Of a stretch of DNA of 64,000 nucleotides, positions 23,080-26,102 are shown piece by piece; position 1 is the first letter of the stretch; every line of letters begins with the position of its first letter. The stretch is from positions 2,277 to 66,276 of the forward strand of contig JABDCY010000001.1 of the NCBI GenBank assembly GCA_013287855.1. Reading direction: 5' to 3'. The position numbers and the translations under genes were made by a program. This stretch comes from Candidatus Babelota bacterium (GTDB lineage: Bacteria; Babelota; Babeliae; Babelales; Vermiphilaceae). The notes below the pieces were generated by a model that was not told the DNA's origin, ran no database searches, and worked only from the letters and a program-made list of their open reading frames with translations.

Positions 23080-24114
23080 ATGAAAGGTCATGTCATGAAA
23101 ATCGTAAAAATAATCATGGTGCTCATGCTGCTGCATGTACAAACTTGGATATATTCGATGACTGGCAGTAATCTTCTTTCGCAAGAATATGGATTAACAG
23201 GTTTAACCGCTCAGCTAGCTGACACTTCTGATCCAAAAAAATTCTTAGAACAAGGTAATGGGTCAAACGGATTATTTGAAGAACCAGAGCAACCTACTAA
23301 AATACCCCAACAAACGGTGACTCAACTAGCGCAAGTTCTTCCAATGTGCGGCAAAGGTAAAAAAACCATTCCAGGCGAACAATTTCATCACCACATAGCC
23401 GAAAAAAGAAAATTGAATGCTGTTCAGCCAACAAACAGTAAAAGTTTCGACCGCGATTGGGGCTGCCTTGTCTGTAAAAAAAAATTCATCCATCCATCGA
23501 ATTTGTCTGAGCATGTCAAACATGATGACCATACAATCGCTATTAAAGCACTCCTCAGCGATCCTTCAGAACAGAAAAAACTCGATAAATTAGCACAAGG
23601 CACAGCGAACAGCTGCCCTGCTTGCTACATTTTTTTTCAAAAGCCAACAGGTCTTAACATGCATAAGAGGTTGCGCCACAAAAAAAATAGTGATGATACA
23701 TCCCCTGAAACCACTAAGGAGACTGATTCATTGTCTAACGACTCTTATGAAGATCCGCACAATGACAAATTATCTGAAGAAGACGTAGAGGAAGAAGAAG
23801 AAGAAGAAGAACCAGTTGAACGCACATCAAAAAAATCTAAAACTACTTTAGCAGCAACAATTCATACCCTGCGCAATCCATACTTTGGCTGTCTTGTGTG
23901 CCATCAAACATTTGATGAACCAGAAAGTCTACAAATCCATGTCAAGAAAAGTGAAACTCACAAAGATAGCCTCGCCGCACTGACCCTGGAAAGAAGCAAA
24001 AAACTTACTAACCTCGCTCACAATATGCTGCATTGTTGTAAGAATGGATGCCTGGTATACTTTACTTCTCAACAAGGAATAGATCAGCATAATGATAAGC
24101 AGCATGCTCAGTAG
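23080..24114 (+). CDS. leader-bearing protein with two C2H2 zinc-finger pair modules separated by a poly-Glu linker
   Basis: Leader MKIVKIIMVLMLLHVQTWIYS. Fingers: CLVC-x12-H-x5-H, CPAC-x12-H-x4-H, CLVC-x12-H-x6-H and C-x4-C-x12-H-x4-H. The linker EEDVEEEEEEEEP is encoded by a GAA repeat (23776-23810). Confidence 0.75.
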   Translation: MKGHVMKIVKIIMVLMLLHVQTWIYSMTGSNLLSQEYGLTGLTAQLADTSDPKKFLEQGNGSNGLFEEPEQPTKIPQQTVTQLAQVLPMCGKGKKTIPGEQFHHHIAEKRKLNAVQPTNSKSFDRDWGCLVCKKKFIHPSNLSEHVKHDDHTIAIKALLSDPSEQKKLDKLAQGTANSCPACYIFFQKPTGLNMHKRLRHKKNSDDTSPETTKETDSLSNDSYEDPHNDKLSEEDVEEEEEEEEPVERTSKKSKTTLAATIHTLRNPYFGCLVCHQTFDEPESLQIHVKKSETHKDSLAALTLERSKKLTNLAHNMLHCCKNGCLVYFTSQQGIDQHNDKQHAQ

Positions 24115-24147
24115 AAGAAATTTTCAAATATCTCATGGATCATTCTT

Positions 24148-24687
24148 ATGAAAAAATTGGTACCTCTTTGCATTACACTGCTCATTAGTTCAACAGTCTG
24201 TGGTATGGAAAGCCCCCTAACAGGCAAAACCGTAGGACCTAAAAAATACCATCTACATCGTTATTTAACGCAAGGTGCAGTATCTGCTGAGACTGATGAG
24301 AACATAAAAACTTCTGAAAATGAATCTGATGATAGTTCATTTATACCCGACCACGAAAGTGAAGGAGATTTAGAAGAAAATTTATGTGAAAATGATGAAC
24401 CTTCATCTAGTTCGCGCGAGAGCAAGAAAAATTACGTCAGACCACTAAATAAAGTTGCAGGCTGTTTGGTCTGTAAAAATGTTTATGACGTACGATGTTT
24501 GGTAGGACACTGTCGCTGTAAAATACATAAGCAGAAGCTCGAAAAAATACTTGCATCACCAGAAGAAACGGAAAAATTGCATAAGCTAACCAAGACAACT
24601 AAAAACAGTTGCGCTACATGTTATATTTATTTTGAGAAGGATATTGGTCTGCGTCGGCACCAAGAAAAAACGCATAAAGAAACGTGA
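24148..24687 (+). CDS. leader-bearing protein with one C2H2 zinc-finger pair module
   Basis: Leader MKKLVPLCITLLISSTVCG, acidic/Ser-rich linker, then fingers CLVC-x11-H-x5-H and CATC-x12-H-x4-H. Confidence 0.7.
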   Translation: MKKLVPLCITLLISSTVCGMESPLTGKTVGPKKYHLHRYLTQGAVSAETDENIKTSENESDDSSFIPDHESEGDLEENLCENDEPSSSSRESKKNYVRPLNKVAGCLVCKNVYDVRCLVGHCRCKIHKQKLEKILASPEETEKLHKLTKTTKNSCATCYIYFEKDIGLRRHQEKTHKET

Positions 24688-24737
24688 TATGGAGCACCAT
24701 GCAAAAACAAATTATTTCCATAGAAAAGTGTAGTGTC

Positions 24738-25469
24738 ATGAAAAAACTAATTATGAGCAGCACCATCTTTTTGACCGTAGCAGCGAACGTGTTTGCTATG
24801 CAATCTGATAAAGATAGTGATTATGATCCAAATAAAGAAACTGAGCAAAAAACCACTCGACAATCTCCTACATGGGGTTGCATTCCTTGTGGTTTCAAAA
24901 CTAACGATGCCCGTGAACTCTACAAGCATTTGAGACCGCCTGAACACAAAGCCAAAATCGGAGAAATTTTGAAATCATCCACGAAAATGGAACGTTGGAG
25001 AAAACAAGCTAAAACCATTCCCAATTCGTGCGAACTCTGTTTGGTGCATTATCAAAATCCATTTGGCCTTAGAAGTCATAATTCAGCAGCTCATTCCTCA
25101 ACGGTTCTCGAAAAAAAGACCTCATCAACCAAACGATCTTTGAGCGATATGGGGTCAAGTTCAACATCGCATGATCGGCCATTAAAAAAACAACACACGG
25201 TTAGTTCAGATACAATTTCGCAACAACCAACTACCCATTGCCTCGCGTGTTCTCAAGAAATTATAAAGCCGCAAGACATTGGTGAACATTTGAAAGCAGA
25301 AGAGCACATGCATAAACTCAGCGAAATATCTCAATCTAAAGAAAAGGTATATGTCTTATTAGATGCCGTACGGGCAAGTAGTAAAAATACTCCAACCTGC
25401 GTCTTGCATTATGTACGTTTCCAAAATCAATCAGATTATGATCAGCATATGAAACAATCCCATGGTTAA
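24738..25469 (+). CDS. leader-bearing protein with two C2H2 zinc-finger pair modules
   Basis: ATG at 24738 (MKKLIMSSTIFLTVAANVFA); the track ORF begins at GTG 24684. Fingers: CIPC-x12-H-x5-H, CELC-x12-H-x4-H, CLAC-x12-H-x5-H and a degenerate C-x2-H-x12-H-x4-H. Confidence 0.7.
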   Translation: MKKLIMSSTIFLTVAANVFAMQSDKDSDYDPNKETEQKTTRQSPTWGCIPCGFKTNDARELYKHLRPPEHKAKIGEILKSSTKMERWRKQAKTIPNSCELCLVHYQNPFGLRSHNSAAHSSTVLEKKTSSTKRSLSDMGSSSTSHDRPLKKQHTVSSDTISQQPTTHCLACSQEIIKPQDIGEHLKAEEHMHKLSEISQSKEKVYVLLDAVRASSKNTPTCVLHYVRFQNQSDYDQHMKQSHG

Positions 25470-25568
25470 CATCAATTTTTTTAACGTAAAATATTGATAT
25501 ATTTACATTAACACTCATGTCATGTTAAACAGCCAAAGTAATTAAAAAACAGTACGTGGGAAGCTGGC

Positions 25569-26102
25569 ATGCAAATACAACATTTTTTCCTGGGAAATCA
25601 GTTCGGAAAGAAAATATTCATAGTTACTTTCATGATTTTTGTAAGAATTCCGATGCATGCCATGGATGATTTTGAGAATATATTTTCAACTGAAGAGATG
25701 GAGACTCAAAATCTAGATGATTTGCCCGATCTAAAAAATCTGCTCGTACAACAAGAGTTTACAAAACGGGTTGCTCGATACCGCCAAAATACACTAGCTA
25801 CTACGACAAAGCCTACAAAAGATTCGTCCATTGTTCTGCAAACTGACTCGCCCATGACAAGAAATATTGGTGAACGTGGATGCATTGCATGCGATATAAT
25901 TTTCAGTGAAGCAAGAGAGCTAAGTGATCATCTGACAACACCAGAACATACTGAAATCATCCGCTCACTCACGAGCGAACAACGAAAAAAACTAACTAAA
26001 TTAGCTAGGAACTGCTGTCCTTATAACTGCTATGTCTATTTTCCAACTGCACGCGGACTTAAGATTCACAACGGTCTCAAACACAAAGATCAAAACCACT
26101 AA
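25569..26102 (+). CDS. leader-bearing protein with one C2H2 zinc-finger pair module
   Basis: Hydrophobic N-terminus (KKIFIVTFMIFVRIPMHA). Fingers: CIAC-x12-H-x5-H and C-x4-C-x12-H-x4-H. Confidence 0.7.
   Translation: MQIQHFFLGNQFGKKIFIVTFMIFVRIPMHAMDDFENIFSTEEMETQNLDDLPDLKNLLVQQEFTKRVARYRQNTLATTTKPTKDSSIVLQTDSPMTRNIGERGCIACDIIFSEARELSDHLTTPEHTEIIRSLTSEQRKKLTKLARNCCPYNCYVYFPTARGLKIHNGLKHKDQNH

Follow-up and report, generated by a model that had tools for sequence, protein, structure and literature searches.

A tandem array of leader-bearing, paired C2H2 zinc-finger proteins in a member of the Dependentiae: candidate exported RNA-binding effectors

Zinc fingers of the eukaryotic C2H2 type are very rare in bacteria, and the bacterial Ros/MucR proteins, which are cytoplasmic and DNA-binding, carry a single finger each, have a larger globular fold, and space their zinc ligands differently. 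Here, we describe a tandem array of four genes (Z1-Z4) at positions 23080-26102 of a 64,000-nucleotide stretch of contig JABDCY010000001.1 (the whole stretch is called the window), each of which encodes an N-terminal leader and one or two modules containing a pair of C2H2 fingers. The array proteins are similar to Ros/MucR in that Cys2His2 zinc coordination is predicted in a bacterial protein, but differ from them in having paired fingers and leaders. An initial annotation of this DNA had separated the two groups, and this separation agrees with the lack of any ROS_MUCR match for window proteins at E <= 10 in Pfam and NCBIfam; NCBIfam yielded no matches at all for the array proteins.

The closest described counterparts of the first finger of each module (finger A) are found in ZNF593/Bud20 and ZNF622/Rei1, which are pre-60S ribosome factors, and in the zf-C2H2_jaz and zf-met families, all of which share with it the pattern C-x2-C-x12-H-x5-H (x, any residue) and an aromatic residue after the second Cys. 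As in ZNF593-type fingers, the finger A helix does not end at the last His but leads into a basic helix. Unlike ZNF593, Bud20, and Rei1, the array family is bacterial and possesses an N-terminal leader, and its finger A is always joined via a two-helix hairpin to a classical finger (finger B) in a fixed unit of ~82 amino acids (aa). No region of ZNF593 or Rei1 beyond finger A and its helix is common to the array family, and no described counterpart was found for a unit of finger, two-helix hairpin, and finger that carries a bacterial leader.

Described Dependentiae, the phylum in which the host of the array is placed below, are obligate intracellular parasites of protists. Their eukaryote-like proteins, such as the ankyrin-repeat, F-box, and Ulp1-like proteins of Babela massiliensis and Chromulinavorax destructans, resemble the array proteins in combining a signal-peptide-like leader with a eukaryote-type domain, in paralog expansion, and in their predicted export route, namely Sec plus a type II secretion system (T2SS) or vesicles (PMC4378268, PMC6561590, PMC4776705). 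A signal peptide together with a eukaryote-like domain is the published pattern of candidate effectors in this phylum (PMC4378268, PMC6561590). Signal peptides are present on 79 of the 126 ankyrin proteins of Babela, in which a T2SS was the sole secretion system found (PMC4378268); a T2SS also belongs to the core systems of TM6 (PMC4776705), and 44% of the coding sequences of Chromulinavorax have a signal peptide, with enrichment in ORFans and ankyrin proteins (PMC6561590). According to the published accounts, the T2SS is the only dedicated system described for Dependentiae, and the proposal of outer-membrane vesicles goes back to apparent budding in electron microscopy; secretion of this effector class is predicted, not demonstrated (PMC4378268, PMC4776705, PMC6561590). 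The array family differs from the ankyrin class in its domain (C2H2) and in its numbers, with 1-4 genes in two genomes versus ~100 ankyrin genes per genome, and the Dependentiae genome papers (PMC4378268, PMC4776705, PMC6561590) contain no mention of zinc-finger proteins under the word 'zinc'.

Small proteins with a signal peptide and one or more C2H2 fingers are also represented by MoHTR1 and MoHTR2 of Magnaporthe oryzae, which are secreted by the pathogen and act on host nucleic acid as DNA-binding transcriptional reprogrammers (PMC12488382). In contrast to the array family, these proteins are fungal and secreted through the endoplasmic reticulum, and MoHTR2 has a single classical zinc-finger domain; no homology is implied. 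Small two-finger C2H2 proteins of parasites of microbes are further known from giant viruses (Klosneuvirinae) and an archaeal virus (B-129, PDB 2wbt), but their resemblance to the array family is weak and non-significant (E >= 0.17) and they are without a leader.

The array comprises the following features, all on the plus strand:

Gene Z1, 23080..24114 (+), 344 aa: leader, acidic/polar linker, module 1, Ser/Asp/Glu-rich linker with eight Glu residues, module 2.
Z1 module 1, 23443..23688 (+), aa 122-203: finger A CLVC..H-x5-H, two-helix linker, finger B CPAC..H-x4-H; net charge +7.
Glu8 tract, 23788..23811 (+): within the linker between the Z1 modules, encoded by GAG(GAA)7.
Z1 module 2, 23866..24111 (+), aa 263-344: finger A with H-x6-H, finger B with CCKNGC (C-x3/4-C); net charge +1.
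Gene Z2, 24148..24687 (+), 179 aa: leader MKKLVPLCITLLISSTVCG followed by Met, acidic/Ser-rich linker, one module.
Z2 module, 24436-24684 (+): 11-residue spacer in finger A; net charge +9.
Gene Z3, 24738..25469 (+), 243 aa: leader MKKLIMSSTIFLTVAANVFA followed by Met, module 1, Ser/Thr-rich linker, module 2.
Z3 module 1, 24852-25103 (+): net charge +8.
Z3 module 2, 25215-25466 (+): finger B of the form C-x2-H-x12-H-x4-H; net charge -1.
Gene Z4, 25569..26102 (+), 177 aa: leader ending in GKKIFIVTFMIFVRIPMHA followed by Met, acidic linker, one module.
Z4 module, 25854-26099 (+): finger B with CCPYNC; net charge +4.

By pattern matching and alignment, six modules of ~82 aa were recognized in these four consecutive genes, and the open reading frames (ORFs) together with these two approaches confirm the four leader-bearing genes, six modules, and 12 motifs of the initial annotation, as well as its poly-Glu tract encoded by a GAA repeat in the first gene (23788-23811). 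Finger A follows C-x2-C-x12-H-x5-H in four of the six modules, and its second-His spacing is H-x5-H in all except Z1 module 2 (H-x6-H). Finger B contains C-x2-C or C-x3/4-C followed by x12-H-x4-H in five modules, the sixth being the C-x2-H form of Z3 module 2, and a spacer of ~25 residues with the consensus K-x2-KL-x-KLA lies between the two fingers. Every zinc-ligand column is invariant in the alignment of the six modules (~83 columns), and 10 of the 12 motifs conform to the strict C2H2 pattern, the exceptions being the x11 spacer and the C-x2-H variant. The strict pattern C-x2-4-C-x12-H-x3-6-H occurs at 10 distinct sites in the ~940 residues of the array versus three in the other ~127,000 residues of the six-frame translation of the window, indicating that the zinc-finger array is real and far above chance. 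A search with the module profile revealed no further modules elsewhere in the window.

Identity between modules is only 19-38%, and DNA-level comparison of Z1-Z4 found only short, low-identity matches, such as the start context TGTCATGAAAA common to Z1 and Z3; given this lack of DNA-level repeats between paralogs, the duplications are either old or fast-evolving. Z1 has a possible alternative start at 23095, and the Z3 frame is open from 24684, its 243 aa being counted from the ATG at 24738 (MKKLIM...).

The place of the array on the chromosome, to which the relatives described below refer, is defined by two flanking genes:

FKBP-type (Mip-like) peptidyl-prolyl isomerase with leader, 22399..22920 (+): upstream flank, marking a conserved slot.
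Membrane protein of 532 aa, hydrophobic and apparently multi-pass, 26115..27713 (-): no Pfam match; downstream flank of the conserved slot.

When 1.84 billion representative proteins were searched exhaustively with HMMER, 560 matches were obtained at E <= 0.001. Among the best 150 of these 560, the architecture of leader plus module was found outside the window in a single protein, P0006, the others being long multi-finger proteins of eukaryotic type. P0006 consists of 282 aa and has a leader (MKVNMIIVCILTVLLLPYQSGA followed by MFGEDD...) and two modules that are 59% identical to each other; both of its B fingers are of the C-x2-H variant, and the last His is missing from module 1. Together with Z1-Z4 it forms five singleton clusters at 90%. 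The two-module proteins (Z1, Z3, and P0006) all pair a basic first module (+5 to +8) with a nearly neutral second one (-1 to +1), and both single-module proteins (Z2 and Z4) are basic, so that first or only modules range overall from +4 to +9.

The P0006 gene lies on contig L002 of a sister genome, in the same slot between an FKBP gene and an orthologue of the 532-aa membrane protein, and compared with the window it is inverted relative to its flanks. Identities between the window and L002 are 77% for GlyA, 51% for FKBP, and 56% for the membrane protein. Since P0006 occupies the same slot, the array represents a local difference of one to four genes, with four genes and six modules in the window and one gene and two modules in L002. 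At two further loci (L003 and L004), the order NusB-EFP-GlyA is kept but the segment of FKBP, zinc-finger, and membrane-protein genes is not. No modules were detected at 80 GlyA loci obtained from a scan of 185,579 GTDB species genomes, or on the only metagenome contigs found via the 532-aa membrane protein (two short ones), and a scan of viral contigs with Z1 and P0006 gave no relatives. In a word-indexed protein search, the six-module profile had no match and P0006 returned only itself, while a fold search of BFVD returned only non-significant C2H2 proteins of giant viruses. As far as public data show, the family is confined to two sister Dependentiae genomes. The lineage-specific expansion proposed in the initial annotation is consistent with this distribution, as the comparison of copy number among related genomes gives one gene in L002, four here, and none at the other loci examined. 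Contamination by eukaryotic DNA was considered and ruled out: a single contig carries the array with bacterial housekeeping genes on either side, and the slot is filled in a second genome.

AlphaFold2 models were generated for Z1 module 1 and Z3 module 2, with mean predicted local distance difference test (pLDDT) values of 86.8 and 86.9 and predicted template modelling (pTM) scores of 0.70 and 0.72, respectively. Both models have the order ββα, two helices, ββα; as in C2H2 fingers, Cys residues are placed in β-hairpins, with His residues within or directly after helices, and the helix of finger A runs ~12 residues beyond the last His. Foldseek neighbours in the PDB, all of sub-significant score, were exclusively C2H2 fingers, including ZNF593 (chain 8fl2_NP, root-mean-square deviation 0.6 Å over 31 residues), U1C, and TUT1. 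When the module profile was compared with PDB sequences, ZNF593 ranked first (E 1.2e-6 to 1.8e-6 over 42 residues, covering finger A and the next helix), followed by Bud20, ZNF622, and many classical fingers; the DNA-binding fingers of Miz-1/ZBTB17, HIC2, CTCF, and Zif268 were also matched.

The sub-threshold Pfam matches of the window proteins consistently belong to C2H2 families (zf-C2H2_2, zf-C2H2, zf-met, and zf-C2H2_jaz). For zf-C2H2 (PF00096), the best window module reaches 22.2 bits versus a cut-off of 25.2, and whole proteins score at most 15.4. Z1 module 1, the only window module tabulated for the other two families, scores 18.7 versus 22.6 for zf-C2H2_jaz and 19.3 versus 21.2 for zf-met, and the whole window proteins score below it in both. 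Weak matches to zf-C2H2_2 (PF12756) occur in six of the eight modules (best 22.1 bits versus 26.9) and span only profile positions ~44-89, that is, one finger and the following helix; four of the eight modules match zf-C2H2_jaz weakly. P0006 obtains 39.8 bits for zf-C2H2_jaz (PF12171) versus a gathering score of 22.6, and ties with the cut-off for zf-met (PF12874; 21.2 versus 21.2). Because P0006 passes the zf-C2H2_jaz gathering score, finger A is placed in the U1/JAZ-like class.

These results support the view that the motifs are genuine eukaryote-type C2H2 fingers, with predicted zinc binding, and that finger A belongs to the U1/JAZ/zf-met class (PF12171, PF12874, PF06220), the window copies themselves remaining below Pfam cut-offs. 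The ligand pattern, predicted ββα fold, and C2H2-only Foldseek neighbours uphold the eukaryote-type fingers of the initial annotation, and the matches to ZNF593, Bud20, and ZNF622 and the zf-C2H2_jaz score of P0006 uphold its U1/JAZ/matrin-like finger A. Among the checks it had suggested, structure prediction gave the expected arrangement in both modelled modules, and profile searches were divided: matches are consistently C2H2 and P0006 exceeds the zf-C2H2_jaz cut-off, but the window proteins fall below all cut-offs. The C-x2-H finger described there as degenerate does exist (Z3 module 2), but its recurrence in both P0006 modules and its predicted ββα fold indicate a variant rather than decay.

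Leaders were recognized heuristically by a K/R n-region, a hydrophobic h-region of 8-16 residues, and small residues at -1/-3. The leaders of Z1-Z4 and P0006 all have a K-rich n-region, a core of 8-16 residues, and a c-region that contains Pro or a small residue and ends with Ala, Gly, or Ser immediately before a Met. With h-regions shorter than 17 residues and c-regions of this kind, the leaders resemble cleavable Sec signal peptides more than anchors. For Z4, a leader requires a start at the ATG at 25569; a public gene call starts at 25653, three codons before the post-leader Met. A leader ending in [A/G/S/C]-Met occurs in 18 of the 43 leader-bearing ORFs of the window versus ~3 expected, with junctions (marked by a slash) such as ...VFA/MQSD, ...TIA/MDSV, and ...INA/MDTN, for example in the ORFs at 2909-3376 (+), 24738-25469 (+), 27616-27924 (-), 28029-28526 (-), 33830-34165 (+), and 44143-44625 (+). 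The same junction is present in five of eight leaders of L002 and four of 13 of L003, is rare in two other loci (L005 and L006), and does not occur in controls from outside the Dependentiae. Either a cleavage context specific to the clade or an alternative start within the ORF could account for it. An acidic region after the leader was also considered as the mark of a distinct class among leader-bearing ORFs and was dropped, as charge was no different. In addition, Z2 has a weak sub-threshold Pfam match to an oomycete RXLR effector family (E 0.056), which probably reflects only the composition of a leader plus an acidic region.

Taken as a whole, the proteins may be exported Dependentiae proteins whose double-finger modules bind host RNA or ribonucleoproteins (RNPs), a reading of predicted secretion and target that we favour tentatively, its likelihood falling somewhat short of even. 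Each product would be made with a cleavable Sec-type signal peptide (K-rich n-region, h-region of 8-16 residues, small residues before the conserved Met), exported with cleavage before this Met, and, judging from the literature on the phylum, released to the host via the T2SS or outer-membrane vesicles. Each ~82-aa module is expected to fold around two zinc ions into a rigid unit, in which a U1/JAZ/ZNF593-like finger with its helix running into a basic helical hairpin (K-x2-KL-x-KLA) would be followed by a classical H-x4-H finger. Analogy with ZNF593/Bud20, ZNF622/Rei1, JAZ, and U1C suggests that the most likely ligands of the basic modules (the first modules of two-module proteins and both single modules) would be host RNA, structured or double-stranded, or RNPs, for example pre-ribosomes. 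The contrast between basic first and near-neutral second modules suggests a split between nucleic-acid and protein contacts, in which the neutral second modules and acidic linkers may serve protein contacts or regulation. A more specific version, in which the array proteins are the first bacterial effectors with U1/JAZ-type fingers for host double-stranded RNA (dsRNA) or rRNA, acting as secreted mimics of pre-60S or dsRNA factors (ZNF593/Bud20, JAZ) by a Sec/T2SS route, is rather doubtful; if it is true, the parasite would use these proteins, exported even though they are Cys-rich and zinc-binding, to disturb ribosome biogenesis, RNA processing, or the sensing of dsRNA in its host.

Several observations weigh against export followed by host RNA binding. 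All Foldseek E-values were >0.1 and none was significant, which is attributable to the tiny size of the domain, and the Pfam scores of all window proteins stay below the gathering thresholds. The choice of RNA over DNA rests only on the likeness of finger A to RNA-binding fingers, while finger B resembles ordinary DNA-binding fingers, and sequence inspection revealed no evident nuclear localization signal. The Met after every leader is a possible alternative start that would give a cytoplasmic form, and zinc fingers rich in Cys are not commonly exported via the periplasm. Furthermore, the leader lacks value as a hallmark that would single out effectors: leaders are present on 43 of 72 non-overlapping window ORFs of at least 100 aa, including normally cytoplasmic enzymes (glycosyltransferases of families GT2, GT6, and GT61, and methyltransferases), so that at ~60% of ORFs a leader cannot mark an effector here. 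Some of the window leaders may be membrane anchors.

The DNA-binding look of finger B bears on one alternative in particular, in which the proteins are secreted nucleomodulins that bind host DNA in the nucleus as mimics of transcription factors, for which the fungal MoHTR1 and MoHTR2 offer a precedent of nuclear effectors with a signal peptide and C2H2 fingers (PMC12488382). This alternative is improbable in our view: finger B has the classical form C-x2-C-x12-H-x4-H, the modules are basic, and their profile matches many DNA-binding fingers, but the best single-domain match is to the RNA/RNP-binding ZNF593. In DNA-reading arrays, a linker of the TGEKP type lets adjacent fingers track the major groove, whereas the fingers here are a helical hairpin of ~25 residues apart; little sequence specificity is expected from one or two modules per protein, and the lack of a clear nuclear localization signal counts here as well.

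Sec leaders alone reach only the periplasm, and not all leader-bearing ORFs of the window can be effectors. The array proteins might serve the bacterium itself in the envelope or periplasm, in zinc capture or buffering or as protein-protein adaptors, with no delivery to the host. A location between a leader-bearing Mip-like FKBP and a large envelope-glycan cluster, as well as eight potential metal ligands per module, would suit such a role, to which we nevertheless give little probability: the fold class is that of a nucleic-acid/RNP-binding finger with a basic surface, and we know of no periplasmic bacterial protein that belongs to it. Moreover, absence of the family from all other Dependentiae loci examined and its fast divergence (19-38% between modules) fit genes for host interaction better than housekeeping genes of the envelope.

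If translation started at the internal Met, or if the leader were an uncleaved anchor, the products would be cytoplasmic or membrane-tethered regulators acting on the bacterium's own RNA or DNA. A post-leader Met is indeed present in all five family members and in excess across the window, the automatic gene call for Z4 begins close to it, and no Shine-Dalgarno signal favours the upstream starts. What makes this explanation unlikely to a similar degree is that open, hydrophobic, K-initiated extensions of 20-30 codons before the Met are kept in all members and in the sister genome; being conserved, open, and hydrophobic in a genome of 40% GC, they are unlikely to be untranslated. In addition, a stable transmembrane anchor would need more than the 8-16 residues of the h-regions, and no role in the regulation of bacterial genes is known to us for eukaryote-type U1/JAZ fingers. 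Finally, it is highly improbable that the genes are decaying, functionless remains of a zinc-finger gene acquired horizontally from a eukaryote or giant virus, because very divergent modules (19-38% identity), non-canonical ligands (x11 spacer, C-x2-H, and the missing last His of P0006 module 1), and restriction to two genomes stand against four intact ORFs, zinc-ligand columns invariant across the six window modules, a conserved hydrophobic core and linker motifs, confident models of both canonical and variant modules, a leader retained on every copy, and no viral relatives among the viral contigs or in the BFVD fold search.

We regard the array as a rare addition to the candidate effectors with eukaryote-like domains in intracellular bacteria, the effector reading itself being partly supported: the leader-bearing zinc-finger proteins are plausibly released to bind host RNA, with both secretion and target being predictions. 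If they are effectors, the paired-finger family would be a new domain class in the eukaryote-like effector repertoire and a compact candidate for the targeting of host RNA or RNPs. A 2017 systematic survey reported host-RNA-binding effectors of bacteria as not yet known (PMC5570926). It would also have to be explained how zinc-finger proteins withstand passage through the envelope. Extreme rarity, together with the one-to-four difference at one conserved slot, makes the family a clean example of the recent growth of an effector-type gene family in Dependentiae.

The host of the array, an uncultured bacterium, is assigned to the Dependentiae (TM6/Babelota) from GlyA, synteny, and a leader-rich proteome. 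Among the 185,579 species genomes, the closest GlyA proteins (64-67% identity) belong to Babeliales/Dependentiae genomes, namely two small-genome metagenome-assembled genomes (MAGs), a Ca. Babeliaceae MAG, and Vermiphilus pyriformis, with all others behind, and NusB-EFP-GlyA synteny is common to the window, L003, and L004. The window comprises a housekeeping segment (LeuRS, DEAD helicase, S1, NusB, EF-P, GlyA, and FKBP) followed by a large glycan-synthesis cluster; scans for tRNAs and against Rfam both gave no matches. One further element separates the array from the genes upstream:

Inverted repeat, 22938..22977, just past the FKBP gene: near-perfect, 19 nt, 95% complementary, with a loop of 2 nt, flanked by A7/T7.

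This hairpin looks like a bidirectional terminator between the glyA-FKBP unit and the array. No terminator-like sites were found between the array genes, three weak matches inside coding sequence being no more than in shuffled sequence, and the co-directional genes Z1-Z4 probably form a single transcription unit.

The 532-aa membrane protein downstream belongs to a family of ~460-530 aa that is also represented at L002 (8529-9923) and on two other contigs (L083, and L084 at 778-2229 and 2189-3631). A pattern scan confirmed no relatives in GTDB species genomes, and the metagenome scan yielded just two contigs, one with two tandem copies. As it adjoins glycan genes, the protein could be an uncharacterised polymerase or ligase.

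More small leader-bearing ORFs without a Pfam match are present around the array, at 27616-28032 (-), 28029-28526 (-), 28780-29235 (-), 29254-29940 (-), 19756-20325 (+), and 20431-21075 (+), and may encode lineage-specific exported proteins; only one of them, of 189 aa, has a weakly similar counterpart (29%) in L002. A precomputed Pfam match to HicB (antitoxin) lies in a small ORF at ~18229-18558 (+) (L001 2377-2706), upstream of nusB. The glycan-synthesis cluster, which extends over >30 kb, includes a gene for an AAA_14 + DUF4143 ATPase at 35495-36664 (-) and two glycosyltransferases that have a leader or anchor and belong to families typically found in eukaryotes, namely a GT6 enzyme (ABO/α-Gal-like, PF03414, E 4e-44) at 49657-50520 (-) and a GT61 enzyme (PF04577, E 1e-22) at 59680-60936 (-).

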